DNA of 64,000 bases from an uncultured Candidatus Moduliflexus sp. (GCA_964602655.1 CAZRSF010000027.1:3830-67829), one strand, 5' to 3'; counted from the stretch's first letter, positions 8,872 to 64,000 are shown. Numbers and translations: made by a program. The notes: generated by a model not told the origin, from the sequence alone.

Positions 8872-11800
8872 ATGAAGATGTCCATCCGCACGAAATTTTT
8901 AATTGTGTGCCTGTTTTTAGTGCTCGTCACGATTGCCGGGATTTCGCTGACATACTATACCCTCACCAAACAGGATAAACAGCGGGAATCGCGCCAGCGC
9001 ATTCAGATTGGCTTTGATATTATTCTGAATGATTACACCAGGCGCATCACCATCTATACGCAGAGCGTCAAAAGATTTCTGGCTGAAAATGTCGCGCTGC
9101 TTTGGGCTACCTATACCTACAGTCGCGATCAGAGCGAAGAAGGCACGATCCGTTTTCTGTTCGATAATTTTGCCGACGCTTCGGAAGAACTGCGGCAATT
9201 CGGGCGTGTGGCATCTGCCGACCGCGTGATGCTGTATGGCGCGAATCGGCGCTTGCTGGTCGTGTATCGCCGTGTCGGAGAGCAAGAGTTGAAGGGGGGC
9301 TATTTTGTCTCAGCGGAAGAAGGTGCGCAATATCTCCCGATGAATGACCCGATGACCCTGGCTGAGATTACCTTTCGACGAATCAACAGCGCGTTGCATT
9401 TCAAAAACAAACCATTTCCTGACGTTCCTTTGCCGCCTGGGGTTGCTGCGATCTATGATCAGGATATCCCGGATGATATTTCGATTTATATTTTTAAAGA
9501 GGGCACACAATTAGGGATTCGAATCGTGGCGCCGATTTATCGCCGCGACGTGAAAATGGGGGTGCTGGTGGGGGATGTGTTTTACACCCAGAGCATGATC
9601 GAAGAATATGCCTCCCTGAGTAAAACGGAGATCAACTTTTTCGCGGAAAATCAATTCAGCGTCGGCACGCTCAAAAAACAAATGCTGCTGGATGAGCGCA
9701 TCCTCACCGGGACGATGAGTTGCCAGGATGTGCGTGATCAACTCCAGCATCTCGCGATTACATCGGTCACATTCGGCATTGACACGTATTATCAGGGAGC
9801 ATGTGTTCTGAAAAATGGCGAGAATGCGATTGGGACGATCACGGTGAGTTTATCGCAAGAGATCGAACAGCAAGAGATCGGTAATATTCTCGAAACGGTA
9901 TTCACAACTTCCGGGATTGGCATCCTGATTTGCCTTGCATTAGTCTCCTGGGTTGTTGTGCCGAAATTTACGAATCCGATTCTGCGCCTGGATCATGCCG
10001 CATTACGGATGGCGCAAGGAGATTTGCAGCAGCCGATTGATGTGCGCGGAAATGATGAACTCAGCACATTAGCGCAAAGTTTTGCGCACATGCGTGATGA
10101 GATTCAGCGCAAAATTCAGGAATTAGAGAACCTGAACGCTGAACTTGATCAGCGCGTCGAAAACCGCACTGCCGAACTTGTCCGTCAAAAATATATTCTG
10201 GACATCTTTATGGAAACTGTCCCGGATCGAATTTTCTTTAAAGATCGCGAAGGCAAGATTACTCGCGCGAACGCGGCCTATACTCTTCGCATCGGATTGC
10301 ATAATCCGACAGAAGCTATCGGAAAGACTGTATTTGACCTATTTCCGACTGAAGAGGCGCAAAAACGACACGAACAAGACCTGGAGATTCTTCGTACCGG
10401 CATCCCATTGATTGGCGAAGAAGAAGAACGAGAAGGGAACGACGGGCAGCGAGAATGGGCATTAATTACGAAAATGCCGCTCAGAAACGAGCATGGCGAC
10501 ATTATCGGTACGTTCGGCATCTCTCGTGACATTACATTACTCAAACATAGCGAAGAGGCGCTGCGCCAGGCCAAAGAGTCGGCGGAATCCGCCAGCCGCG
10601 CCAAAAGCGAATTTTTAGCCAACATGAGCCATGAACTGCGTACCCCGTTAAACGTGATGTTAGGGTTCGCGCAAATTATGGCGCGTCACTCCGATATTTC
10701 CGGCGAAAATAGGGAATATCTCGATATTATCCGCCATAGCGGGGAACATTTGCTGAGTCTGATCAATAACGTGTTAGACCTCTCGAAAATCGAAGCCGGA
10801 CGCATGAGCGTCAACGAAAGCACGATTGATCTCTTTCGTCTTTTAAGCGAATTAGAAGAAATGTTCACGCATAAAGCGGCGCAAAAACATCTGAGCGTCA
10901 TCTTCGAACAGGCTGAACATACGCCGCAATACGTCTATCTTGACGCGCCAAAGTTGCGGCAGGTATTAATCAATCTCTTGAATAACGCCATTAAATTTAC
11001 CGAAGAAGGCGGAATCGCCGTGCGTGTCAAGCCTGTGGAAGCGCCTGCGGCGATGCCTGAGCAGCAGAATCGCTGCTGGCTGCGTTTTGAGGTGGAAGAC
11101 ACCGGACCGGGCATTGCCCCGGAAGAAGCCGGTATGCTGTTCGAAGCTTTCGGACAGACGAAGACCGGGCGTCAAGCCCAGGAAGGCACGGGATTAGGCT
11201 TGACAATCAGCCAGCGGTTTGTGCAGTTGTTAGGCGGCGAGATTCATGTCAACAGCATTGTGGCGCAAGGCACGACATTTTCATTTACCATTCCTGTTGA
11301 GGTCGCGCAGGGACAGGAGACCGCCAATCTGCTCCCGTCGCGCCGAATTATCGCCTTAGAACCGGGGCAGCCGCGTTATCGTATTCTTGTCGTTGATGAC
11401 AAGCCGGGTAATCGTCATGTGTTGACAAGGTTATTGACTCCCTTTGGTTTCGACGTTGCGGAAGCCGTGAATGGGCAGGAAGCGCTTGCCGTGTGGCGCG
11501 AATTCAAGCCGCACTTGATTTGGATGGATATTCGTATGCCGGTCATGAATGGCTATGAGGCGACGCGGCAGATGAAAGCCAGCGCCGAAGGTCGGGCAAC
11601 TGTCGTGATTGCCTTGACAGCGAGCGGATTTGATGACGAACATGAAAAAGTGCTGGCTGCCGGATGTGATGGCTTTCTGCATAAACCTTTCCGGGAAACA
11701 GATATTTTCGAAATGATGCAGAAATACCTCGGCGTGCGTTATGTCTATGAAGAATCCCGCGACGCTGAACGTATCATCACGCCAGCAACATTTCGAGATG

Positions 11801-20794: not shown

Positions 20795-20872
20795 TAGGGG
20801 CGTTCAATTGAACGCCCCTACGCGGCAACATACTACGAGAACCCTGCCAGGGTTTCAAACCCTGGCAGGGTT
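20795..20872. repeat. Two tandem hairpins: GTAGGGGCGTTCAATTGAACGCCCCTAC, then family A AACCCTGCCAGGGTTTCAAACCCTGGCAGGGTT
   Basis: Perfect palindromes directly downstream of the rhaA stop. Confidence 0.75.
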
Positions 20873-39320: not shown

Positions 39321-39353
39321 AACCCTGCCAGGGTTTCGAACCCTGGCAGGGTT
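39321..39353. repeat. Family A AACCCTGCCAGGGTTTCGAACCCTGGCAGGGTT
   Basis: Perfect palindrome between the giant gene's stop and the purA start. Confidence 0.75.
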
Positions 39354-39363
39354 CGGATCGTAT

Positions 39364-42300
39364 TTACCGTTTCAGGCGCTTGAACTGTTTCGCCTGATGC
39401 ATGAACGCTTCCAATTTGGTGTCCGTTCCGGCGTGTTGCGTGCCGTCATAGGCAATCGAAATCATCGGAAGATTATCATGATCTTCCCGCAGTTTTTTCA
39501 GAATCGCCGTGACGATTGTGCCGGGCATACAGCCGAACGGCATGGCGTTGACAATGCCGCTGACGCGGTGATGATAATAATCAATCACTTTGCCGACGCT
39601 CAGCACGGTTTCGCCTTCGAACGACCGGTCAACGTAGGGATCGGAATAATCGAGAATCCCATTCGTCGGAGTTTCATCCAAATACTCGATCACGCCGTGA
39701 AACGGCTTGGCGAGCTTATGCTCCATCATCACCTGGACTTTGTGCTGAATCAAGCCTTTCGCCCAGTTGAAATATTGTTTGTCAACCTTCAAGTGCTGCG
39801 AGCGCGTGTGATTGGTGTAATAAATCCACTCCATCAACGGCGCTAACCAGACTCTGCCGCCGAGCGCCTCCACTTTTTCCACGAGAAAATCGTTGCAGAA
39901 CGAATGGGTGCGGACGTAAATCTCGCCGACGATGCCGATGGTCGGTTTGGGTTGCGATTTATCGGTTTTCACGGCGCGGAATTCGTCGGCGCATTCGGCG
40001 AGAGTTTTATACGGACTGTTGCCGAATTCCAAGGCATCCGACAACCGTTGTAGCGAGCGCTGATAGACCGCGTTCGTGTCGCCGCGATTGAGTTCGAACG
40101 GACGCGTATCGTACAACGCTTTATAGAGCAGATCAACACCCACCATCGCGGTCCAGGCGGACTTTGCGAAACCGCTCCCCACGGCGCCCATTTCTTTGTA
40201 AAAATTCACATCCTGATTCGGCGCAAAGACGGGAATATCAAGCCCTAATTCCTGCATCACGAGCCGATGGAACAGGTTATATTGTCCGAACCGGCACGGC
40301 CCTGTGCCCGACGGCATGAAAAACGCCGCTTTTTCCGGGTTGAAGCCCGGCTCGCGGGTTTTCTTGACCATGTCGCCGGTCGTCACGATCAACGGATAAC
40401 ACTCTTTGCCGGTGGTGAACTGCCGCCCGATTTCGACGCTGTCTTTGTCGGAAAAGCCGAACACTTCCGCCGGAATGCCCAATCCGCGCAAGCCCGCCGC
40501 AAACGCATACGAATGGTCGCCCATGTACGGAATGTACAACGTGCGCCCTTTGAGCGATGGCATTTTGTCTTCGAACGTGCGTTGATACGGCGAATACGTT
40601 CGGCCTTTGATATTTTCCAGACTGTCCAAAAACGCCTCGCAGCGGGTAATCGCTCCGGCGGGCGCACTGTGTTCGTCAATTTCGATAATCAGCGACGGTT
40701 TGTCCCCCATCACTTTCTTGAAATAGGTGGTCAGGAACGAATCCGGGCCGCAACTGAAATTCGTGATGTACAGCGCGTTCAGTTTCGGGTGATTGCGGAT
40801 CATTTTGCCCGCTTTCAGGATGCGCTGACCGTATTTCCAGTACATATTCGTCCAATCGTCGCCGATTTTTTCGGCGTGCACCGGCAGAAAATCCATCGGA
40901 ATCGCGAGGACGCCGAGGTCGCGCAGAATCGTCGGCAGGCCGAGATTGATGCCCGGATCGCAGCCGTTATAAACGCGGCTGACGATGACGACGGCGCGCT
41001 GCTGGTCGCTCAGGCTTTCCAGAATTTCCTCGCCCCGTTTCATCATGGCACTGCGGAACGCTTTCTGCGTCAGGTCAGCCACTTCTAACGCCTTTTTCAC
41101 CTGATCTGGCGTTTTCCCGAATGGTTTCGCGAATTCGATCAACGAATCCAACAACGCTTTTTGACCGCGCGTAAACGTAATGACCGGGCGCAAGAATTTG
41201 TCTTTCGGCATGTCGAGCGCGGCGCTGACCAAATACGGCGTGGTTTGCACATACGGGCAGAGGTGATAATTTTTATAATCCGGATCATCCTCCTCCATGC
41301 CGATGATGCTGGGGAAAAAGATGTGATCCACGTCGTCGCGTTCCAGTAGCGAAATCACCTGACCATGCGCGACTTTGAGCGGAAAACAGGATTCCGCGAT
41401 GGTGCCTTCGACGCCTTTGTGGATGATTTGCTTATTCGTGCGCGGCGACAAAATCACTTTGAAGCCCAATTCCGACAGCAACGCATTGAAAAACGGATAC
41501 AGCTCGTGATAATACAAAGCGCGGGGAATGCCGAAACTCGTGCCGCGTTCGACCGTCTTTTCAGGCTTGTAGAAGCCGACAAGCATCTTTTCGCGTTCGG
41601 CGAACAGATCGGGAATCATCTCGCGATTTTTGGTTTTTTCTTCGCCGTTCACGTCCCAGCGCGGGCAGCGTCCGCCGTAGTGCATCGGGTCGGAGCCTTC
41701 CACAAGCACTTCGTGAATTTCGCAGAGATTCGAGCAATGTTTGCATTCGAACGTGCGGATTTCGTATTTGCGTTTGCTCAGGTCGAAGCCCCGGAATTTG
41801 CTCGGCGGATTGCCATGCTGACGCTGATAATCCCGCGCCAGCAGCGCCACGCCGATGGCGCCGGTCACATCGTGATGTTTCGGCACGATCACCGGTTTGC
41901 CGACGACTTGCTCGAATGCGGCGACCACGCCTTTGTTCGCGGCCACGCCGCCTTGAAAGAAAATTTTGTTGCCGACGCGCCGATCTCCGACCACGCGGTT
42001 CAGATAATTTCTGACAATCGAGTAGCTCAGTCCGGCGACGAGTTCCTGCACGTTTGCGCCTTGTTGCTGATGGAACACAAGATCGGATTCCATGAACACG
42101 GTACAGCGTTCGCCGAGGCCGACCGGCAGTTCTGCGCCGAGCGCCAGATTGCCGAACTCTTCTTTGATATTGATGCCGAGCTTTTCCGCCTGTTCTTCAA
42201 GGAACGAACCGGTTCCGGCGGCGCAGGCGTGGTTCATTTCGAAATCCACGACCACGCCCTTATCAATGCCGATGTATTTGGAATCCTGCCCGCCGATTTC

Positions 42301-43590
42301 GAAAATCGTGTCCACTTCCGGGTCAATATGCACGGCAGCCCGCGCCTGCGCCGTGATTTCGTTGCGCACCACATCCGCGCCGACGAAATCGCCGGTCAGA
42401 TAGCGGCCTGAGCCGGTCGTCGCGACGCCGAGAATATCCACGATGTCCGCGACTTCTTCGCCGACTTCTTCGATGCCATGCCGCACCGCTTCAATCGGGC
42501 GTCCGGCGGTCATCAGATAACGGCGCGAGAGGACATTGCCTTCGGCGTCAATCACCACGACATTCGTGCTGATCGAGCCGACATCCACGCCCATGTAGGC
42601 CGGAATGCGCGTCATTCCGTCTTTTTTCGGCGTCACCGTTCCCGCACCGATATAATGGCGTTTCGTCGGGTCGCCTTCGAATTTCAACGGCGCGAGCCGC
42701 GTCGCTTCGATAGAACGACCGTTGACATACGCTTCGAAGCGTTCGATGCCGGTAAAGCGGCTCGGCGTCTGTTTGTCCAAGACCTCCAAAATCGCGCCAA
42801 GCGCACCCATGCAGGCGGAATATTGCGGAATAATCAATTCCCCTTCCTGCAATTCGAGAATATCTTCGAACGCCCTGACGACGCCTTTGTTCCAGGCCAC
42901 GCCGCCGTGAAAGGCAATCGGTTTGGCGAATTCTTTGCCTTTGCCGAGATTGCTTTTGTAATTGCGCGCCATGGCGTAGCAGAGTCCGGCCACGATGTCG
43001 AAATCCGGCGTGGCGATCTGCTGCAAATGAATCATGTCCGATTTCGCGAACACAGAACAGCGTCCGGCGACGCGCGGCGGGTGGACGGATTTCAACGCCA
43101 TCTCGCCGAATTCGCCGTCAATCGCGATGCCTAAACGGCTGGCCTGCTGGTCGAGGAACGAACCGGTTCCGGCGGCGCAGACGGAGTTCATGGCGAAATC
43201 TTCCAGCGCCAATTCCTTGCTGTTCGGGTCTTCCATCAGCCGGATCAGTTTGGAATCCGCGCCGCCGATTTCGATGACGGTGCGGACTTCGGGATGCAAA
43301 AACGTGGTCGCTTTGGTTTGCGACACGATTTCGTTGATACAGACGGCGTCAATCGCTTTGGCGATTTCTTTGCCGCCTGCGCCGGTAAAGGCGATCTGCG
43401 CAATGCGCTCCGCGCCGAATTCCAGCACAATGCTTTTCAGCGCGTCCAGCGTGGTTTCGACCGGTCTGCCTTTATGCCGGATGTACGCGTGATGCAAAAT
43501 TTCATAATCGTCGTTGACCGAGACCACGTCAACGCTGACCGAACCAATATCAATTCCGAGATGAATCGGAGAAAGTTTTCGAGTTTCCAT
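39364..43590 (-). CDS. Giant fusion protein: two BadF/BadG/BcrA/BcrD-type activase ATPase domains plus 2-hydroxyacyl-CoA dehydratase (HgdB-like) domains
   Basis: Two acetate/sugar-kinase-fold ATPase modules (LGIDIGSVSVD... and MGVDVGSISTN...). C-terminal dehydratase-like region. About 1409 aa from METRKLSP with an AAGGAG RBS. Confidence 0.85.
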   Translation of the reverse strand: METRKLSPIHLGIDIGSVSVDVVSVNDDYEILHHAYIRHKGRPVETTLDALKSIVLEFGAERIAQIAFTGAGGKEIAKAIDAVCINEIVSQTKATTFLHPEVRTVIEIGGADSKLIRLMEDPNSKELALEDFAMNSVCAAGTGSFLDQQASRLGIAIDGEFGEMALKSVHPPRVAGRCSVFAKSDMIHLQQIATPDFDIVAGLCYAMARNYKSNLGKGKEFAKPIAFHGGVAWNKGVVRAFEDILELQEGELIIPQYSACMGALGAILEVLDKQTPSRFTGIERFEAYVNGRSIEATRLAPLKFEGDPTKRHYIGAGTVTPKKDGMTRIPAYMGVDVGSISTNVVVIDAEGNVLSRRYLMTAGRPIEAVRHGIEEVGEEVADIVDILGVATTGSGRYLTGDFVGADVVRNEITAQARAAVHIDPEVDTIFEIGGQDSKYIGIDKGVVVDFEMNHACAAGTGSFLEEQAEKLGINIKEEFGNLALGAELPVGLGERCTVFMESDLVFHQQQGANVQELVAGLSYSIVRNYLNRVVGDRRVGNKIFFQGGVAANKGVVAAFEQVVGKPVIVPKHHDVTGAIGVALLARDYQRQHGNPPSKFRGFDLSKRKYEIRTFECKHCSNLCEIHEVLVEGSDPMHYGGRCPRWDVNGEEKTKNREMIPDLFAEREKMLVGFYKPEKTVERGTSFGIPRALYYHELYPFFNALLSELGFKVILSPRTNKQIIHKGVEGTIAESCFPLKVAHGQVISLLERDDVDHIFFPSIIGMEEDDPDYKNYHLCPYVQTTPYLVSAALDMPKDKFLRPVITFTRGQKALLDSLIEFAKPFGKTPDQVKKALEVADLTQKAFRSAMMKRGEEILESLSDQQRAVVIVSRVYNGCDPGINLGLPTILRDLGVLAIPMDFLPVHAEKIGDDWTNMYWKYGQRILKAGKMIRNHPKLNALYITNFSCGPDSFLTTYFKKVMGDKPSLIIEIDEHSAPAGAITRCEAFLDSLENIKGRTYSPYQRTFEDKMPSLKGRTLYIPYMGDHSYAFAAGLRGLGIPAEVFGFSDKDSVEIGRQFTTGKECYPLIVTTGDMVKKTREPGFNPEKAAFFMPSGTGPCRFGQYNLFHRLVMQELGLDIPVFAPNQDVNFYKEMGAVGSGFAKSAWTAMVGVDLLYKALYDTRPFELNRGDTNAVYQRSLQRLSDALEFGNSPYKTLAECADEFRAVKTDKSQPKPTIGIVGEIYVRTHSFCNDFLVEKVEALGGRVWLAPLMEWIYYTNHTRSQHLKVDKQYFNWAKGLIQHKVQVMMEHKLAKPFHGVIEYLDETPTNGILDYSDPYVDRSFEGETVLSVGKVIDYYHHRVSGIVNAMPFGCMPGTIVTAILKKLREDHDNLPMISIAYDGTQHAGTDTKLEAFMHQAKQFKRLKR

Positions 43591-43803
43591 AGATGATGCT
43601 CCTTGTTCGAGACGGCTCGCGGAAGACGCCATCTTCCGCGACGCGCTCGCGACAGTAAACGTTTCACAGGCGATCCTGTGACAGCGTTTCCCGAAAACGC
43701 GCTGTTTTCGGGCGGTTATAACTACCGGGAACATCTTCGAGAGGCGAGAGCTTTGTCAAGCAAAAAAGCGGATTGAGTATTGACGCAGAGGGTTGAGGAG
43801 ATC

Positions 43804-50036: not shown

Positions 50037-50046
50037 GCCCTGCCAG

Positions 50047-50077
50047 GGTTTGAAACCCTGGCAGGGCTGGGAACTCA
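50047..50077. repeat. Family A GCCCTGCCAGGGTTTGAAACCCTGGCAGGGC
   Basis: Perfect palindrome filling the 44-nt gap between the YiiX-like gene (+) and the SWIM gene (-) stops. Confidence 0.75.
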
Positions 50078-57040: not shown

Positions 57041-57162
57041 CTCTGGTCTGGTAGAAATTGTACGGCGAAACACCATTTCGCCGTACAACGGTATTCCCGA
57101 TACGCTTTTGTTCATCTTCGGTTCGGATTTCCTCGCTGATTTTCATCATCAAGATTGTTTTC

Positions 57163-59181
57163 TTACGTTTCCCAGCGTAAATGCTGAATCTGGGGGATCG
57201 CTTCTTCAGTGGCCTGCTTTCCTTTCTGGATCAGGCTGCCGGCATTGAAAAATTCCGACCACGCAACATCGCCGACATCCGGGGCAATATGGACGCTGGC
57301 TTGCATGGTTTTGATCGTGGATAATTCATATTGTAAGCTCTGCAACGAGCGAATCGCAATATCGAACACCGGCAGCAGCGGCGACCGCGAGACGGCCAGC
57401 GTCCCCTCTTTCTTCGGACGGCGCAACGATTTTAAGCTGTCTTGCAGCGAGGGCGTGACGTTGACGGCAATGATAATATCGGCATGACGCTTGACCAGCG
57501 CATTGACCGGCACAGGATCGGCGATGGAGCCGTCAATCAGCAGGCGGCCATCGAACGCGACCGGCGTAAAGACGCCGGGAATCGAGAGACTGGCGCGCAC
57601 GGCCATTCGCACATTCCCTTGTTCGAAGGTGATTTCCTCGCCGCTGTTCATATCAAGGGCGGTAACGGACAGCGGAATTTTCATCTCGTTGAAATCGGGA
57701 TCGCCGACGACGTTGAGATACAGTCTATTGACTTCCACGCCGCTGAACATGCCGATGCCAGCGCGAAAGATGCGTGGTTCCCAGCTTGCGCGTTTCGGAT
57801 GGAGTTTGCGCCAGATCGCCTTGCTATAATATTTCATGTCGAACACATCTGGGATGGTCAGCCGCAGCAAACCGGCTTTCGATCCCCATTTCAGCACAGC
57901 CTGTTCGATTTTTTCAATGGACACGCCTGCGGCATACGCCGAACCAATCAGCGCTCCGGCGCTTGACCCGGCGATCAGATCAATCGGAATGTTGTGCTGT
58001 TCTAACGCCTGAAAAACGCCGATATGCGCCATACCTCGCGCCGAGCCGCCGCCAAGCGCTAATCCGATGGTTTTCTTGCCGATGTCCCGCGCTAACCGCC
58101 CGAACGCCAGGCTTAATTCGCTCTCTGGAGATTGCGTTACGCACGGAATGCCGGAAGAGAAAAAATGGCTAATCGCTTGATAGTCGCGCGGCAGCACATG
58201 ATAGCCCCGTTCCCGCAACGCGCCTTTATCGAGCGACGCGTCCGACAGGTTAATCACCATGCGCACTTCCTGGTGATCCAAAATAATCAGCGGATATTCT
58301 TGCGTGATGTTAGACGTGACGAACAGCATCATATTGGATAGATCAATCGCTTCGAACGTGCTGCGATTCAGGCGCGAACTGGTGTCAATAATGATGTAAT
58401 CGTACAGATTTTTCAGAATGCCCAAAATTTTCGCAATAGACTCCCGGCCTTTGGTTTCTTCTGCGAGCAACTCCGGCGAGATGGAGAGCACGTCTAACAG
58501 GGTCGAATGGGTAACGATCTGTTGCTCGATGTAGTTTTGCGTAATGGTCGTCGTGTCCACGTAGCGCGCCGGTTCGATTTTCAGCAGCGACGCCACGCCG
58601 TGTTGGTACGTCATGCCCATGTCAACGACGACGACGCGGCATTTGGTTTCTTGCAGCAGGCTGACGCCGAGGTTGACCGCCACAAGCGATTTTCCGATAT
58701 TTTCCTCCGTGCCATACACGCAGATGATCGGATATTTGACGCGCTTGGTCTTTTTCTCTCCGCCGCGTTGATCAACATGGAGTTTTTTACTCAATAATTC
58801 CCCTAAATTGTAAAGCACGGTGGTATGGGCTTTGATCGCCTGTTCGAAGCGGATTTTATCTGCCTGAAAGACTTCGGCGTCAATCAGCACTTCGATGGAG
58901 GTCAAGCGCGGTTCGCTCGGCAGCAGCGGGATTTCGCCGAAAAACATGCCTTGATCGAGCAAATCCAATTCGACTTCCTGCCCCTGTTCGTTCTTTCGCA
59001 ACACGCGCACCTGGCCGGACAGCAGGATGTAAAAAAAGGTGCTGGTCTCTCCTTCCTCACAAATCCGCGCTCCACGGGGATAATAGCGTTTTTCGAAAAT
59101 CGGCGCGATTTTTTGGAGGTCGTCTTCAGTGACCCCTTTGAAAATACGGTTACTTTTCAGTAATAATTGTGTATCAGACAT
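57163..59181 (-). CDS. Three-domain protein: cNMP-binding (CAP_ED), degenerate ParA/MinD-like P-loop, and patatin-like phospholipase
   Basis: N-terminal FFGEIPLL...RLTSIEV cNMP motifs. Middle domain ICVYGTEENIGKSLVAVNLGVSLL (deviant Walker A). C-terminal GGGSARGMAHIGV and GSSAGA (GxSxG) patatin motifs with a DGS aspartate. Start taken at MSDTQ. Confidence 0.8.
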   Translation of the reverse strand: MSDTQLLLKSNRIFKGVTEDDLQKIAPIFEKRYYPRGARICEEGETSTFFYILLSGQVRVLRKNEQGQEVELDLLDQGMFFGEIPLLPSEPRLTSIEVLIDAEVFQADKIRFEQAIKAHTTVLYNLGELLSKKLHVDQRGGEKKTKRVKYPIICVYGTEENIGKSLVAVNLGVSLLQETKCRVVVVDMGMTYQHGVASLLKIEPARYVDTTTITQNYIEQQIVTHSTLLDVLSISPELLAEETKGRESIAKILGILKNLYDYIIIDTSSRLNRSTFEAIDLSNMMLFVTSNITQEYPLIILDHQEVRMVINLSDASLDKGALRERGYHVLPRDYQAISHFFSSGIPCVTQSPESELSLAFGRLARDIGKKTIGLALGGGSARGMAHIGVFQALEQHNIPIDLIAGSSAGALIGSAYAAGVSIEKIEQAVLKWGSKAGLLRLTIPDVFDMKYYSKAIWRKLHPKRASWEPRIFRAGIGMFSGVEVNRLYLNVVGDPDFNEMKIPLSVTALDMNSGEEITFEQGNVRMAVRASLSIPGVFTPVAFDGRLLIDGSIADPVPVNALVKRHADIIIAVNVTPSLQDSLKSLRRPKKEGTLAVSRSPLLPVFDIAIRSLQSLQYELSTIKTMQASVHIAPDVGDVAWSEFFNAGSLIQKGKQATEEAIPQIQHLRWET

Positions 59182-59220
59182 ACGGCTCTCTTTATATTGC
59201 ACGTAATTATATCGTTGATA

Positions 59221-59261
59221 AGCCCTGACAGCCCTGACAGGGTTCGAAACCCTGTCAGGGC
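59221..59261. repeat. Family A variant GCCCTGACAGGGTTCGAAACCCTGTCAGGGC with a partial duplication of the left arm
   Basis: Lies between the two patatin-fusion genes. AGCCCTGACA is duplicated directly before it. Confidence 0.7.
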
Positions 59262-59274
59262 TAAAAACCCGTTT

Positions 59275-60795
59275 TCAACCCCATCGTAATTTTTCGATCT
59301 GCGGAATCGCCGCGTCAGCGGCCAGCACGCCGCGTTCAATCAACGCGGGTACGCGATGAAAATCCCGCCAGGAAATGCCCATCATGTCCGGCAGAATAAA
59401 CACATCCGGAGCGACGCGCTGCGCTAATTCGGGAGCGTCCGGCGAATCAATCAGCCGTTCCATCAAGCTGTCGAACGTCGCGGAGACTAAAGCGTAATTT
59501 TGATACATGGCCTTTTGTTCGGCTGTCTGGCGACTGTTGATGTTCTGCCGGACATACGCCTGGCTTTTCGCCGGAGTCGGCGTCACCATGACCGCAATCG
59601 TAATATTCGCGCCCATCTGTTTCAGCGGATAGACCGGCGTGGGATAAATGACCGAGCCGTCAATCAAATGATGCTCGCTGTGCTTAAACGGCACGAACAA
59701 TCCTGGAATCAACATACTGGCTTTCACGGCGTCAATGACGCGCCCTTCTTTGAACACCACACTCGTGCCTGTGCGGGCGTCTATCGCTACGACATGCAGC
59801 GGAATGCTCAAATCGTCGAAATAGGTATTGCCCAATAATACTGCGCACAACTCCTGCAAGCCGGCATCAACAAAAAATTCTTTGTGAAAAAGGCGGCGAA
59901 TACTGTACTTCGACAGCGGACGGCAGGATTGCGCCCAGTCCGTGATATGCTGCTTGATCCGCTCCAGTTCCATGCCTGCGGCATACGCTCCGCCAATCAA
60001 TGCGCCGAAACTCGCGCCCGTCATCATGTCGAATGCGATGCGATTCCGCTCTAATACTTCGAGGATGCCCACCTGCGACAGTCCCAAGGCCGCGCCGCCG
60101 GTTAACGCCATGCCGAAACGTTTCTCGCCGATGTCCCTGGCCAATCGGCTGATTGTCTGGCTGAGTTGCCGGTACGGCAATTGAATGATATATGGCACGC
60201 CGCTCTGGCGAAATGCCTCGATGGTCAGCGCATCATGGGGCAATGCGTATTCTTTGCCGTAGCCCGCCGCGTATTTTGGCTCTTTCGCGGCTTGTTCGCC
60301 ATTGCTGATAATGACGCGGTAATTCCGATGTCCGATAATGCTGATCGGCACGTCATAGTCGAACGATGAGGCGATGACTAAAAACATCTCGGTCGCGTCT
60401 ATGATTTCATCCGTGATAAACGGAAAATACGCCGAAATATCGAACAGAATATAGGCATACCGCTCACGCAGCAGCACCAGCAGAATATCAATCACATTTT
60501 GCGCTAATTCCGGATGGCGAAAAATTGCGGCATCAAGCGACAGCAGCGAGAGTTGCGAACTGTGATGCTGGATATGCTGCTCGAACATCTCTGCGGTGAA
60601 TGGTTCGATGCTTACGGCATTGGCCGAGGGAAATTTCAGCATTTCCCAGGCCGGAGTCCCCTCTTGCGCATCATTTACGTCAATCAGGATCACGGATTTT
60701 TGCGTTTCATTCAAGAGACTGACGCCGAGATTGATCCCGATCAGGGTTTTCCCAAGATGCCGTTCTGCGCTGTAAATTGTGAGGACTGAACTCAT
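59275..60795 (-). CDS. Degenerate ParA/MinD-like and patatin-like phospholipase fusion (paralogue of the downstream gene, lacking the cNMP domain)
   Basis: MSSVLTIYSAERHLGKTLIGINLGVSL deviant P-loop. GGAALGLSQVGIL and GASFGA patatin motifs. 506 aa. Confidence 0.8.
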   Translation of the reverse strand: MSSVLTIYSAERHLGKTLIGINLGVSLLNETQKSVILIDVNDAQEGTPAWEMLKFPSANAVSIEPFTAEMFEQHIQHHSSQLSLLSLDAAIFRHPELAQNVIDILLVLLRERYAYILFDISAYFPFITDEIIDATEMFLVIASSFDYDVPISIIGHRNYRVIISNGEQAAKEPKYAAGYGKEYALPHDALTIEAFRQSGVPYIIQLPYRQLSQTISRLARDIGEKRFGMALTGGAALGLSQVGILEVLERNRIAFDMMTGASFGALIGGAYAAGMELERIKQHITDWAQSCRPLSKYSIRRLFHKEFFVDAGLQELCAVLLGNTYFDDLSIPLHVVAIDARTGTSVVFKEGRVIDAVKASMLIPGLFVPFKHSEHHLIDGSVIYPTPVYPLKQMGANITIAVMVTPTPAKSQAYVRQNINSRQTAEQKAMYQNYALVSATFDSLMERLIDSPDAPELAQRVAPDVFILPDMMGISWRDFHRVPALIERGVLAADAAIPQIEKLRWG

Positions 60796-60980: not shown

Positions 60981-61263
60981 TATCATTCCTAATCATATAC
61001 ATTCTCCCGGATTCCCGTCAAGTAGAAATTCGGCGCGTTGGAAAAATCTCCTGAGAAAACAGCGCGTTTCAGCACGTCTCAGGCGAATGTCGCCTGAAAA
61101 ATTCAGGCGTGGACAGAAACAATTTTTCAGAAATCATTTTCTTGCTCAAAAAACTCTTGATCAGAAATAAAGATTGTGAGTACAATGACGCTTCAGCGAG
61201 AAAAAGGTTTTCTGCAACGGCGACAATTTTTTCAATAACGCGGAGATAGAGGGAAGAACGGCG

Positions 61264-64000
61264 ATGAGATTACGAAGATCAGGGATGATAACAGGTCTGT
61301 GTCTGCTGATGGCAATGGCCTCAACGGCATCAGCAAAGACAGAAGAAGAGTATCAAGAAGAAATCCGCACGCTGCAAAAGCGCAACATGCAGTTAGAAAA
61401 TACATTAGAAGAGGGAAGTCAGGAGTTGAAGCGCTTTGCAGAACAGGTCAACGTCCTTCGAGAGCAAGTGTCTCAAATGACAGCATCTGGAGGAAGTGAC
61501 TCAAAAGAAGTGAAAGAGATGCGCGAAGCGATAAAACAATTAAAGGCGCAGGTACAAACGCTTCTTGCGCAACAAGGCGGCGCGGATGCCGAAAAAAAAG
61601 TTCAGGCGCTTGAAAAACAATTGAATACGGCGTTACAGCAAACGCAAGAACTTCAGCAGAAATTAAAAACGGCGGAAAAAGACAAGGCCAAATTGCAGCA
61701 AGACGCGGCGAAGAGCAGCGTATCAAAAGAGGCCGACGCGCAGGCCAAAAAATTACAGCAGAATCTTGAACTTTTGCAAAGCCAGATGAAATCTCAGCAG
61801 CAAGAATTTTCGTCCCAGCAGCAACGGTTGCAGGAAGAATTACAAAAGGTACAGACGGAGTACGAACTTCAAAAGAATCAGTATAAAGCAAATTTGGCAA
61901 TATTGCAGGAAAAAGAGGACGAACTCCAGGCGCTTCGTCAGGAGAGCAACAAGCAAACGGCAGCCGACCCGCGCGTCGCGGAATTGGACGCGATGTTAGC
62001 GGAAATGAACAACAAGCTTGTCAAAATTTCTCAGGAAAAAACCGCGCTGGAAACGCAGTTGAAAGAGTCTATCGCTTCGCAAACGGCGACAACGGACATG
62101 ACGGCAAAAGAGCAACTGAAATCAGCAGAACTTGCCAAAGAAGTCGCCCGGCTGCAAGGGTTATTAGAGGTTGCGGAGCAGCAGACGAAACATCGCCAAA
62201 CGACGGCGCAGCAAGAAAATAGCAGAATCGCGGAGTTAGAGCAACAATTGGCCGAGATGACCAGCAATGCGAGTCAATTGACCGAAAAAAACGCCATGAT
62301 GCTGGCGCAGATGGAGGAACAAGCGTCTGCGCAAAAACTGTATATGGCGCAAATCGAAAAAGAACGGGGGCGGGCTGATGGCTACGCCCAGGAAGTCACC
62401 AGGCTGCAAAGTCTGGTAGATGCTGCCGAGCAGCAGGCGACACAGCAGAAAAATACCGCGTTGAAGGGGGACAGCCGTTCGAAAGAATTAGAGACCAGTC
62501 TTGCGCAAATGAATGACAAACTGCTCAAACTCTCCCAGGAAAAAGCCGCAATCGAAACGCAATTGACAGAACAAATCACGTCGGCGAAATTACAGGCAGA
62601 ATTGTTGGCGCAAGAACGGCAGAACGCGGAGGATTTTAAGCGAAAAGCGAGCCAGCTTGAAGCCACATTAGAAACGACGCAGTTGCAGATACGTCAGCAG
62701 AACGCCTCGACCAAAGAGGGAGATGCGCGAGTGACCGAATTGGAAGCCATGCTGTCCGAATTGAACAGCCGCTTGCTTAAAATGTCGCAGCAAAAAGCCG
62801 ATCTTGAAACTCGACTGGCAGACCAGAGCGCGGCGGAAAATCAAAAAACGCAACAGATATATGCGTTAGAACAACAAATCGCCAAGCTGCAAGGATCGTT
62901 GGATGCGTCGAAACAGCAGGCAACCCAGGAGCAGCAGACGACGCAGCAAATCAATCGGCAGATCAATGACCTGGAAACGCAATTAGCGGAAGCGAACGCA
63001 AAAGTATTGGAGCTTTCGAACAATAATATTCGACTTGAAGCGCAATTAGGAGAGAAACAAGGCTCGGAAAATTTGAAGGTTCAGGAATTGACCAAAGAGA
63101 TCGCTCGCCTGCAAGGATTGCTGGATTCTTCGCAGCAAAAAGCCGCGCAACAGGAGATGAGCACGCAGCAGATAGACGCCCGAATCAGCGAGTTGGAAAC
63201 ACAATTGGCGCAAGCCAACATTAGAGCGACGGAAGTTTCCGCTGAAAATGCGCGTTTGGAATCGCTGCTGACGGAGCGGAAATCGCTTCAGCAGGATGAT
63301 GTCACCAAAACGCAGACGGAAATATCCCGATTGAAGGGTGAACTTCGCAAAGCTGCCGAGTATGTCAATACCAGAAACGCGGAAATGCTCGCTATGAAAG
63401 AGGAAAACAGGCTGTTGACCGCAAAAATTACGCGCTACGAAGAGAATCAGACGTCGTTGCAAACGAAGTTGGCAAGCCATTCGACCGATCTTGAGGAACA
63501 ATCGCTGACCGTTCAACAGTTGCAAGCCAGATTCGCCGAGACTCAGGCGAAACTCGAACAGAACGAACAGGAGATGGCGTCGCTGATCAATGAGCGGAAC
63601 AGCTTGAAAAATGATGTCGAGACTATCAAACAGCAGAACGCCGCGCTTCAGGTGGAACTTGCCAATCAAGAACAGCAGATCACGCGTCAGACCTCTGTCC
63701 CGGAAGATGCCAAGAAACGGATACAGGAATTGGTCTTAGAACTTCAAGACGCCAAAGTCAAGCTCGATAAGCTGGGACGCCTGGAAACGGAGTATCCGGC
63801 AGCGCAAAAAGAATTAGCGGATTTGAAAATCGAACTCGCGTCTTTGCGCGATGCGCATGGCGAAGTGGCGACCTTGCGCCCTGAATTGCAGGATTTGAAA
63901 CAGAATCTCGAACAATCGCGCCGGGAAGCGGAGATGGCGACCGCGCAGAGTGAAAAATTGCAGCAGGAACTTGCCCGAAAAGCGGAGACGTATCAGATGC
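61264..64000 (+). CDS. Secreted giant coiled-coil protein with ~80-aa tandem repeats (5' partial; continues beyond the window)
   Basis: Uninterrupted reading frame from ATG 61264 to the window end, checked by hand. It is absent from the ORF track, which presumably requires a stop codon. N-terminal signal peptide MRLRRSGMITGLCLLMAMASTASA. Highly Q/E/K/L-rich heptad sequence. GAGGGAAG RBS. Confidence 0.7.
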   Translation, partial: MRLRRSGMITGLCLLMAMASTASAKTEEEYQEEIRTLQKRNMQLENTLEEGSQELKRFAEQVNVLREQVSQMTASGGSDSKEVKEMREAIKQLKAQVQTLLAQQGGADAEKKVQALEKQLNTALQQTQELQQKLKTAEKDKAKLQQDAAKSSVSKEADAQAKKLQQNLELLQSQMKSQQQEFSSQQQRLQEELQKVQTEYELQKNQYKANLAILQEKEDELQALRQESNKQTAADPRVAELDAMLAEMNNKLVKISQEKTALETQLKESIASQTATTDMTAKEQLKSAELAKEVARLQGLLEVAEQQTKHRQTTAQQENSRIAELEQQLAEMTSNASQLTEKNAMMLAQMEEQASAQKLYMAQIEKERGRADGYAQEVTRLQSLVDAAEQQATQQKNTALKGDSRSKELETSLAQMNDKLLKLSQEKAAIETQLTEQITSAKLQAELLAQERQNAEDFKRKASQLEATLETTQLQIRQQNASTKEGDARVTELEAMLSELNSRLLKMSQQKADLETRLADQSAAENQKTQQIYALEQQIAKLQGSLDASKQQATQEQQTTQQINRQINDLETQLAEANAKVLELSNNNIRLEAQLGEKQGSENLKVQELTKEIARLQGLLDSSQQKAAQQEMSTQQIDARISELETQLAQANIRATEVSAENARLESLLTERKSLQQDDVTKTQTEISRLKGELRKAAEYVNTRNAEMLAMKEENRLLTAKITRYEENQTSLQTKLASHSTDLEEQSLTVQQLQARFAETQAKLEQNEQEMASLINERNSLKNDVETIKQQNAALQVELANQEQQITRQTSVPEDAKKRIQELVLELQDAKVKLDKLGRLETEYPAAQKELADLKIELASLRDAHGEVATLRPELQDLKQNLEQSRREAEMATAQSEKLQQELARKAETYQM
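62146..63350 (+). repeat. Degenerate ~240-bp tandem repeats inside the coiled-coil protein gene
   Basis: Recurrent blocks xxARLQGLLxxAEQQ...ELExQLAxxN...LSQEKAAxETQL. Matching DNA (GTCGCCCGGCTGCAAGG, GTCACCAGGCTGCAAAG, ATCGCCAAGCTGCAAGG, ATCGCTCGCCTGCAAGG) occurs at 62146, 62395, 62878 and 63104. Confidence 0.6.

Follow-up and report, generated by a model that had tools for sequence, protein, structure and literature searches.

The locus examined here raises the question of what a P-loop-like domain does when fused to a lipase, and whether two neighbouring genes that share this fusion act together. Genes B and A are neighbouring minus-strand ORFs of a Moduliflexota (candidate phylum KSB3) bacterium. 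Both lie in the window, the whole stretch of 64,000 nucleotides that was analysed, to which all positions refer. A sequence-only reading had described two adjacent minus-strand genes with these domains; both ORFs were found where it placed them, and its domain calls are borne out by the Pfam scan, with AAA_31 in B scoring below the cut-off. The genes and their domains are:

59275..60795, minus strand: gene B, ParA/MinD-like and patatin domains without a sensor; ORF of 506 aa with ATG start (Pfam)
60130..60795, minus strand: ParA/MinD-like domain of B, aa 1-222; aligned with the middle domain of A and with MinD
59287..60120, minus strand: patatin domain of B, aa 226-503; alignment to PlpD 5fqu, E 2.4e-28
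57163..59181, minus strand: gene A, cNMP-binding, ParA/MinD-like and patatin domains; 672 aa from the likely ATG (Pfam)
58825..59088, minus strand: cyclic-nucleotide-binding (CNB) domain of A, aa 32-119; PF00027, fold matches CRP/PKG CNB domains
58066..58746, minus strand: ParA/MinD-like domain of A, aa 146-372; domain model, Foldseek and profile against MinD 1hyq
57178..58062, minus strand: patatin domain of A, aa 374-668; PF01734, PlpD profile and Foldseek

The mechanical ORF of gene A covers 57163-59202 (679 aa, GTG start at 59202); the ATG at 59181 is the likely start because homologues begin MSDT. Pfam residues of A are given below in the 679-aa numbering and motif residues in the 672-aa numbering. 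The whole-protein AlphaFold2 model of A has a pLDDT of 79 and a pTM of 0.74. For gene B the database contains an identical protein (P0121, 100%), and its orthologues, all from Moduliflexota, fall into about 35 clusters; for A about 45 clusters with 54-95% identity were found. With E-values of 1e-20 to 1e-32 and this number of orthologue clusters, the domain pattern is not a product of chance.

The catalytic domains carry the following motifs:

58033-58053, minus strand: A GGGSARG
57955-57969, minus strand: A GSSAG
57526-57534, minus strand: A DGS
60082-60102, minus strand: B TGGAALG
60004-60018, minus strand: B GASFG
59653-59664, minus strand: B IDGS

Patatin (PF01734) is matched by residues 381-569 of A (112.1 bits) and 230-391 of B (78.3 bits; cut-off 27.7 for both). 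The domain of A agrees with PlpD 5fqu by profile (E 1.7e-59) and by Foldseek (TMt 0.82), and in B, GASFG and IDGS are aligned to GxSxG and DG of PlpD. The Ser-Asp dyads are intact (GSSAG/DGS in A, GASFG/IDGS in B), as had been claimed, and on these motifs A and B are predicted to be patatin Ser-Asp lipases. The oxyanion motif GGGx[RK]G takes the form GGGSARG in A and TGGAALG in B, the latter without the basic residue, like several apparently intact relatives. The closest catalytic domains are those of the RssA/YlbK/PlpD clade. RssA is the best NCBIfam model, with 116 and 102 bits for the two proteins, below the equivalog cut-off (NF007623; 272 bits). In this clade, RssA and YlbK consist of one domain only, PlpD is built as a type Vd autotransporter, and a ParA-like or cNMP module is missing from all three.

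The sensor of A matches cNMP_binding (PF00027) at residues 39-126 with 71.7 bits (Pfam cut-off 27.5) and contains the element:

58897-58944, minus strand: A phosphate-binding cassette FFGEIPLLPSEPRLTS; Glu/Asp and Arg conserved across orthologues

Orthologues share the form FFG[E/D]..LL.SEPRLTS, so that both the profile and the Glu/Arg cassette of the family are present. The cassette Arg is followed by Leu, which gives no call on cAMP versus cGMP specificity. B has no cNMP-binding domain.

The middle domain is defined by these motifs:

58687-58713, minus strand: A GTEENIGKS, aa 157-165
58615-58635, minus strand: A VVVVDMG
58375-58404, minus strand: A YDYIIIDTSS
60745-60771, minus strand: B Walker A-like SAERHLGKT, aa 9-17

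AAA_31 (PF13614) matches A at 159-295 with 35.4 bits (cut-off 27) and B at 14-142 with 17.4 bits, below that cut-off; the B orthologues P0049 and P0050 reach 33-38 bits. The proposal that this domain is a P-loop fold held up: in A it is a ParA/MinD fold, confidently modelled (pLDDT 91.9, pTM 0.91), with Foldseek matches to ParA 3ea0, MinD 1hyq, Soj, FlhG, FleN and BcsQ at TM 0.66-0.77 and a full-length profile match to MinD 1hyq (E 4e-10). Its closest sequence relatives are proteins of receiver domain plus ParA-like domain, CpaE/TadZ type, with a canonical KGGVGKT (hhalign probability 100%). CpaE/TadZ-type proteins and MinD, ParA, FlhG and BcsQ (SIMIBI class with deviant Walker A) have the fold in common with A and B, and a sensor followed by a ParA-like domain is a logic found also in A; these relatives have KGGxGK[ST] and no lipase, whereas A and B have xE[E]xxGK[ST] and a fused lipase and lack the signature Lys and the second switch I Asp.

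The replacement of Walker A by EENIGKS in A and ERHLGKT in B was read correctly. GK[ST] is retained (TEENIGKS, AERHLGKT), and the signature Lys of KGGxxGK[ST] is a Glu in A, in B and in their orthologues. The second switch I Asp, equivalent to MinD D40 and needed for hydrolysis, is absent (VVVVDMGM in A and VILIDVN in B versus ivDaDit in archaeal MinD). In A, K164/S165, the first switch I Asp D187 and the Walker B Asp D266 are at least 95% conserved; in B the same holds for E11, G15 and K16 among 33 orthologues, and for K16/T17, with a Glu at the Walker B position in 4 of 35. Conservation of these pocket residues, E..GK[ST] included, is 95-97% or more. Conservation of the middle domain comes close to that of the lipase domain (72.6% versus 77.9% in A, 48% versus 57% in B). 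The earlier term "degenerate" overstates the change: the domain keeps E..GK[ST] together with the first switch I and Walker B Asp residues and appears, from its sequence, re-specified rather than decayed.

The layout itself is not new. Pfam already catalogues an "NTE family P-loop like domain" (PF24179) in cNMP-...-patatin proteins, widespread in bacteria: clustering at 90% identity gives at least 431 groups of proteins with this layout, and 120 of 120 among the matches listed carry PF24179. Clearer ParA-like versions, built as cNMP+AAA_31+patatin, are known from Omnitrophota, Acidobacteriota, Elusimicrobia and Chloroflexota. The bacterial NTE-like proteins (one or two cNMP_binding domains, NTE_Ploop and Patatin, annotated "lysophospholipid hydrolase / NTE family protein") have the module order of A, B being without the sensor. 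They have an RssA/PlpD-type patatin in common with A and B, and an LAR..G junction precedes GGGxRG. The middle domains are in register (YDYIIID versus YHHILYVAD), although the PF24179 profile gave no match in A or B at E ≤1. In hhalign, the middle domain of A compared with a 25-sequence NTE_Ploop alignment scored 16.6% (E 1.5e-3, in register), the group from other phyla scored 86.6% against NTE_Ploop (E 4.5e-6), and A scored 100% against that group. NTE_Ploop is entirely devoid of GK[ST], whereas the window proteins are recognisable ParA/MinD (AAA_31) members with conserved pocket residues. B and A diverged anciently as paralogues within the bacterial NTE-like lipase family; their pair represents a lineage-specific, duplicated form of a widespread layout and no novel kind of system. 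Of the earlier claim of an unusual architecture there remains the Moduliflexota-wide B-A tandem with its xE[E]xxGK[ST] loop; the tandem comparison covers Moduliflexota loci.

Eukaryotic NTE proteins are products of single genes and carry a membrane anchor at the N-terminus as well as three CNB domains. In PNPLA6, Swiss-cheese (SWS) and Nte1, compared here by description and not by sequence, CNB domains stand upstream of a patatin (lyso)phospholipase as in A, and the Pfam family name ties the P-loop-like linker to the NTE family. In SWS, the animal NTE orthologue, mutation of the CNB sites abolishes lipase function (PMC12710771).

The B-A tandem was found in every Moduliflexota locus read (the window, L001, L007, L008 and L090), with spacers of 10-93 nt, and at least 16 A and B clusters have matching longest-contig sizes, which suggests linkage. 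The features around the pair in the window are:

59203..59274, minus strand: B-A spacer with a REP-like hairpin (sequence; spacer 93 nt)
59232-59260, spacer: perfect palindrome CCCTGACAGGGTTTCGAACCCTGTCAGGG (sequence)
60992..61021, minus strand: promoter match TTGACG-18-TATGAT, sigma-70-like, about 200 nt upstream of B (consensus scan 10/12, pattern only)
57060..57086, no strand assigned: hairpin between the convergent gene A and ftsH, read from the sequence; the terminator scan does not list it
61264..64000, plus strand: divergent neighbour gene, signal peptide and more than 900 aa of coiled coil, running past the window end

The palindrome reported between the paralogues is present, as a dispersed REP-like hairpin and not as a part of the system: four copies occur at intergenic spots of the window against none expected by chance. 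Its RNA fold (-33.1 kcal/mol, z -6.2) lacks a T-run. M. flocculans has a diverged palindrome at the same spot; none was found there in Vecturithrix. The hairpin next to ftsH is likely a bidirectional terminator. Translation confirmed the secreted coiled-coil neighbour, which keeps its divergent position in M. flocculans (1194 aa, C-terminal region propeller-like by eye, with no Pfam hit) and in Vecturithrix (weak or faint PD40, Tricorn and beta-propeller matches). It is absent from L008 and L090 and is possibly unrelated to A and B. The other flanking genes are of housekeeping type (ftsH, SLT transglycosylase, amidohydrolase, purA, asnB). A single-gene relative adjoins genes for a PGAP1-like lipase, an alpha/beta hydrolase and an Aas-like acyltransferase/acyl-activating enzyme, neighbours that point to lipid turnover.

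The reading we prefer, tentatively and with a probability of about 0.45, is that of a cyclic-nucleotide-gated lipase complex held together by its ParA-like domains, with the membrane lipids of the cell itself as substrate. The ParA-like domains would join A and B in one complex as a nucleotide-holding, non-hydrolysing dimerisation scaffold. Such a static role is proposed because ParA/MinD-class proteins dimerise and TadZ/CpaE- or BcsQ-type members are used as static scaffolds. Binding of cAMP or cGMP to the sensor of A would relieve inhibition of the lipase site or sites, and the complex would then hydrolyse the cell's (lyso)phospholipids in a signal-dependent membrane remodelling. B would be the sensor-less partner, purely structural in some lineages: the nucleophile Ser is replaced by Gly (GAGFG, GTGFG) in 8 of 35 B clusters, E..GK[ST] is present in all full-length B orthologues, the serine-less ones included, and at L090, the locus of a serine-less lineage, B still adjoins A. 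Since both lipase sites of the window look intact, B may be more than a scaffold there. We counted for the complex the fold, the conserved pocket, the tandem, this loss of Ser with loop and pair kept, the conserved cassette, the SWS CNB data, the housekeeping context and the lipid-turnover neighbours. Against it, tandem conservation could simply reflect co-regulation, and the spacer hairpin could uncouple expression of A and B. In a canonical ATP-sandwich dimer, the Glu that takes the place of the signature Lys would cause a clash; nucleotide binding is putative for a P-loop that has two acidic residues, and the window offers no linked cyclase.

The alternative that survives best, though we hold it to be somewhat unlikely, is that A and B are independent lipases without physical coupling, A regulated by cNMP and B constitutive or otherwise regulated, their ParA-like domain being an inert linker inherited from an NTE-like ancestor. 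It agrees with the two intact dyads of the window, with relatives of A that lack a B (a 634-aa clade in L002; P0155 in L009) and with the free decay of the P-loop in the wider family (NTE_Ploop, P0047, P0048, P0052). An inert linker is at odds with pocket residues that are among the best-conserved positions of A and B and with a middle domain conserved nearly to the level of the lipase; the loop and the pair that outlast the catalytic Ser are hard to explain by it.

That the ParA-like domain works as an NTPase switch, positioning the lipase at a membrane, a pole or a partner as MinD and ParA do and making of cNMP and ATP a two-input gate, we consider quite unlikely. GK[ST], the switch I and Walker B Asp residues and the whole MinD fold, C-terminal half included, are retained, and acidic SIMIBI P-loops can be active, as in dethiobiotin synthetase (GTDTEVGKT). 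This reading has to accommodate the Glu in place of the signature Lys, the replacement of both P-loop glycines and the absence of the second switch I Asp; in the model of A, moreover, the domain runs directly into the patatin, with no recognisable membrane-targeting helix between them.

The sequence-only reading had also drawn an analogy to CapV of CBASS. Patatin effectors are common in CBASS, and A and B would share with CBASS and Pycsar the general logic of a nucleotide signal that turns on a membrane-damaging effector; the CapV patatin fold superposes with TMt 0.54-0.60. The CapV lipase is its own cGAMP receptor and is without CNB or P-loop domains, while Pycsar effectors are CNB+TIR or CNB+TM proteins. 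PADLOC phospholipase-effector and PycTIR models match with E 1e-4 to 1e-11 (PycTIR weakly, over the CNB part only, at 1e-4), an anti-phage phospholipase model matches weakly, and a lactamase_B gene with a weak Anti-Pycsar_Apyc1 match lies near one distant relative locus. All matches involve single domains and fall far under the family cut-offs of 200-400 bits (CapV: 24 and 42 bits versus 200). No cyclase gene adjoins the pair in the window, L001, L007, L008 or L090, with neither a CD-NTase nor the PycC expected beside a Pycsar CNB effector in the window, L001, L008 or L090; in the 64-kb window, tblastn with a class III cyclase and Pfam scans of 20 neighbouring ORFs found no cyclase-like gene. 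With these sub-threshold matches, the housekeeping flanks, a position that is largely the same across the Moduliflexota genomes read and identities graded as is typical of vertical descent, an anti-phage abortive-infection pair, in which a Pycsar/CBASS-like cyclic-nucleotide-activated patatin phospholipase destroys the membrane upon infection, is very improbable.

The preferred complex has a bolder version, which we regard as unlikely: A and B would form, by way of their re-specified ParA-like domains, an obligate heterodimer whose lipase fires on two inputs, a nucleotide or other ligand in the xEExxGK[ST] pocket and cNMP on A, and the family would be a surviving intermediate showing that the NTE P-loop-like linker, that of human PNPLA6 included, descended from a ParA/MinD dimerisation ATPase. 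If true, this would provide a model for how the NTE regulatory region works.

The A/B family belongs to an uncultured phylum and is uncharacterised yet already catalogued, and it does not make up a system of a new class. We know of no settled account of CNB control in NTE-type lipases, even for the human disease gene PNPLA6, nor, to our knowledge, has a role been assigned to the linker between sensor and lipase. The Moduliflexota proteins retain that linker in a readable state, with a ParA/MinD fold and conserved pocket residues, and B is a natural sensor-less partner that is, as predicted from the loss of Ser, sometimes catalytically dead. A and B may thus serve as a soluble bacterial system for dissecting the coupling of sensor to lipase and the role of the P-loop-like domain.

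Genes A and B encode NTE-like, putative cyclic-nucleotide-sensing patatin lipases in which the linker can still be recognised as a ParA/MinD domain; the lipase has been duplicated into a sensor-bearing partner (gene A) and a sensor-less one (gene B). The two minus-strand genes with their motifs, the palindromic element between them and the adjoining giant secreted coiled-coil repeat protein, all described in the sequence-only reading, were recovered as follows.

Features of the A/B locus
59275-60795, minus strand: gene B, ORF of 506 aa
57163-59202, minus strand: gene A, ORF as called mechanically; likely ATG at 59181, giving 672 aa
59232-59260, B-A spacer: palindrome, hairpin of -33 kcal/mol without a T-run
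61264-64000 and past the window end, plus strand, divergent: gene for the secreted coiled-coil protein, signal peptide MRLRRSGMITGLCLLMAMASTASA

The gene A start is placed at 59181 because all homologues begin at MSDT (Pfam residues of gene A were counted in a 679-aa numbering, its motifs in the 672-aa one). Gene A matches cNMP_binding (71.7 bits), AAA_31 (35.4 bits) and Patatin (112 bits). Gene B matches Patatin (78 bits) and, below threshold, AAA_31 (17.4 bits), a domain that scores 33-38 bits in its orthologues. The Walker A sequence is altered as had been reported, to EENIGKS within GTEENIGKS in gene A and to ERHLGKT within SAERHLGKT in gene B. The further motifs are GGGSARG, GSSAG and DGS in gene A and TGGAALG, GASFG and IDGS in gene B, the latter matching the GxSxG and DG of the solved patatin PlpD by alignment. 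The phosphate-binding cassette of the gene A sensor retains its Arg and Glu/Asp, and the sensor is followed by a long helix (aa 120-138). Within the patatin domain of gene A, aa 438-469 (window 57775-57870) form a basic/aromatic insertion of ~32 aa, TIPDVFDMKYYSKAIWRKLHPKRASWEPRIFR, which is modelled with low confidence; the 634-aa sister clade (P0041) lacks it, and it may serve as a lid or as a loop that binds membranes.

The middle domain, modelled alone with AlphaFold2, gave a confident structure (pLDDT 91.9, pTM 0.91) whose best PDB matches are ParA (3ea0), MinD (1hyq), Soj, FlhG, FleN and BcsQ (TM-scores 0.66-0.77); on this ground its assignment to the ParA/MinD class of P-loop domains is right. 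Its profile aligns over the full length with archaeal MinD (E 4e-10), saEEeiGKt facing SGKGGTGKT. Calling the domain degenerate was an overstatement, since its pocket (E..GK[ST], the first switch I Asp and the Walker B Asp) is at least 95% conserved across 40 orthologues of A and 33 of B, save that the Walker B position of B is Glu in 4 of 35 orthologues, and mean pairwise identity is close to that of the lipase domain (72.6% versus 77.9% in A, 48% versus 57% in B). The residues lost are the signature Lys (replaced by Glu), both P-loop glycines and the second switch I Asp, which in MinD/Soj-type proteins serve trans-activated hydrolysis.

In a search of 1.84 billion representatives, six proteins alone reached E ≤1e-30. 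The next tier comprises proteins of ~400 aa with a receiver domain and AAA_31, of the CpaE/TadZ type with a canonical KGGVGKT, and proteins of ~680 aa with cNMP, AAA_31 and patatin domains, whose loops are all non-canonical. The middle domain aligns with the CpaE-like group at 100% probability (hhalign). The layout had already been catalogued in Pfam as PF24179 (NTE_Ploop, "Neuropathy Target Esterase family P-loop like domain"), which lies between cNMP and patatin domains, for example in a Psychrosphaera protein. With one such protein as query, a search gave at least 431 clusters at E ≤1e-10; among the matches listed, PF24179 was present in 120 of 120 clusters, those with an organism name being Chloroflexota, and some of these proteins are annotated "lysophospholipid hydrolase / NTE family protein". 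A Pfam search of the window proteins gave no match to PF24179. By hhalign the middle domain scored 59.6% against NTE_Ploop with four sequences, falling to 16.6%, in register, with a 25-sequence alignment; the three-domain proteins from other phyla align at 100% with the middle domain and at 86.6% (E 4.5e-6) with NTE_Ploop, a value reached by this bridge only. The shared position, the LAR..G junction that flanks both and the bridge make kinship likely; given the fall with the richer alignment, these comparisons are no more than suggestive that NTE_Ploop could be this ParA-like domain in a more decayed state.

The claim of an unusual architecture thus holds in part: the general NTE-like layout is known, whereas close one-to-one orthologues occur in one phylum only. 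When species-representative genomes were scanned, relatives with all three domains at full length turned up in Moduliflexus (80%), a KSB3 MAG (72%), Ardenticatenia (35%), Vecturithrix (33%) and, at 26-28%, Acidobacteriota, Omnitrophota and Elusimicrobia. Literature searches returned no paper on bacterial cNMP-ParA-patatin proteins. Three proteins (P0055, P0067, P0083) carry in the same position a P-loop domain of another class, a sigma-54-type AAA+ with its AAA lid, between cNMP_binding and patatin.

The source organism belongs to Candidatus Moduliflexota (candidate division KSB3). For gene B, an NCBI protein matches at 100% identity and the Ca. Moduliflexus flocculans protein at 86%; gene A is 73% identical to its Ca. 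Vecturithrix granuli counterpart. The B-A tandem is present in all Moduliflexota loci read, with spacers of 93 nt (window), 52 nt (M. flocculans, L007), 10 nt (V. granuli, L001), 71 nt (L008) and 17 nt (L090), and for 16 or more A and B clusters the longest contig is of equal length, a sign that the two genes share contigs there. In a rough neighbour-joining tree B is sister to A and groups with the cNMP-bearing single-gene relatives P0155 and P0168, a position from which we take B for an old paralogue whose sensor has been lost. Its evolution is faster than that of A. The lipase site of B is dispensable: the nucleophile Ser is replaced by Gly in 8 of 35 B clusters (GAGFG in two, GTGFG in six, the latter also with VDNS). 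These Ser-less clusters retain the E..GK[ST] loop, and in one such locus (L090) A still adjoins B. Moduliflexota also carry a paralogue C (L012 5983-7917; also P0047, P0048, P0169; L004, L006), with a cNMP sensor, a ParA-like domain without GK[ST] and a patatin domain that is a pseudo-lipase, because the Ser of GxSxG is replaced by Asn. A PATAN (PatA_N)-like gene of ~255 aa invariably precedes it, and in L012 and L006 a receiver-domain gene does so too. Neither the 151-aa upstream gene of L002 nor the PATAN-like genes of distant relatives have a counterpart in the window.

The spacer palindrome is one of four perfect 29-nt copies of CCCTG[A/C]CAGGGTTTCGAACCCTG[T/G]CAGGG in the window (20842-20870, 39323-39351, 50038-50066 and 59232-59260), all intergenic, where none is expected by chance. 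We regard it as a REP-like dispersed element because of this recurrence between genes. The B-A spacer has a diverged copy in M. flocculans (L007, about 11525-11555) and none in Vecturithrix; because of this absence and the three other copies, a regulatory site specific to the system was rejected. One copy flanks a minus-strand ORF of 1456 aa (39364-43734) with two BcrAD_BadFG ATPase stretches and DUF2229, of the CoA-enzyme activase type.

The neighbourhood of the pair is of housekeeping character (ftsH, an SLT transglycosylase, an amidohydrolase, purA, asnB, rhaA and a two-component system). The secreted protein is a repetitive coiled coil of >900 aa without a Pfam match. Its M. flocculans orthologue has 1194 aa; the C-terminal region of that protein has no Pfam match and was judged propeller-like by eye. 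The Vecturithrix counterpart gives weak or faint PD40, Tricorn and beta-propeller matches. The gene is divergently linked to the pair in these three genomes and not in L008 and L090, and is kept as context rather than as a functional partner. A gene for a CHASE2 and class III nucleotide cyclase protein lies 2.7 kb downstream of the pair in M. flocculans (L007 16274-18430); no counterpart was found in the window (best tblastn E 0.71), L001, L008 or L090, and a linked cyclase was rejected as part of the unit. A small STAS-domain gene of anti-sigma-antagonist type lies within a few kb of gene A in three otherwise different loci (L002 9996-10343, L008 10021-10365, L007 5678-6022), convergent and directly downstream in two. 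The single-gene relative P0155 (cNMP, ParA-like and patatin domains) lies in a lipid-turnover neighbourhood (L009 7818-15754), followed by genes for a PGAP1-like lipase and an alpha/beta hydrolase, with an Aas-like acyltransferase/AMP-binding (acyl-activating) gene nearby.

Domains of the ParA/MinD class form dimers, which makes it most plausible that the middle domains join A and B. We favour, with a probability of roughly 45%, a cNMP-gated lipase complex held together by the ParA-like domains and probably acting on the cell's own (lyso)phospholipids. The scaffold may hold bound, unhydrolysed nucleotide, as TadZ and BcsQ do. That A and B are independent enzymes with the ParA-like domain as an inert linker is a weaker, rather doubtful explanation: A-like genes without B exist, but the pocket is conserved and Ser-less B persists. 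It is less likely still that the domain is a working ATP switch localising the lipase, for although GK[ST] and the Walker B Asp are retained, the signature Lys and the switch I Asp are lost. The proposed analogy with patatin effectors of phage defence is very improbable and was set aside, its sole basis being sub-threshold PADLOC and NCBIfam domain matches, against which stand the housekeeping context, vertical inheritance and the lack of an adjacent cyclase.

In the cNMP-gated complex, the helix at aa 120-138 would relay cNMP binding from the sensor of A to the scaffold and then to the lipase sites. In the fly NTE orthologue, lipase function is abolished when all CNB sites are mutated (PMC12710771), and signal-transduction genes are unusually abundant in KSB3 genomes (PMC4312070). 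The main value of the pair would lie in its use as a tractable model for the workings of the regulatory region in NTE-family lipases.
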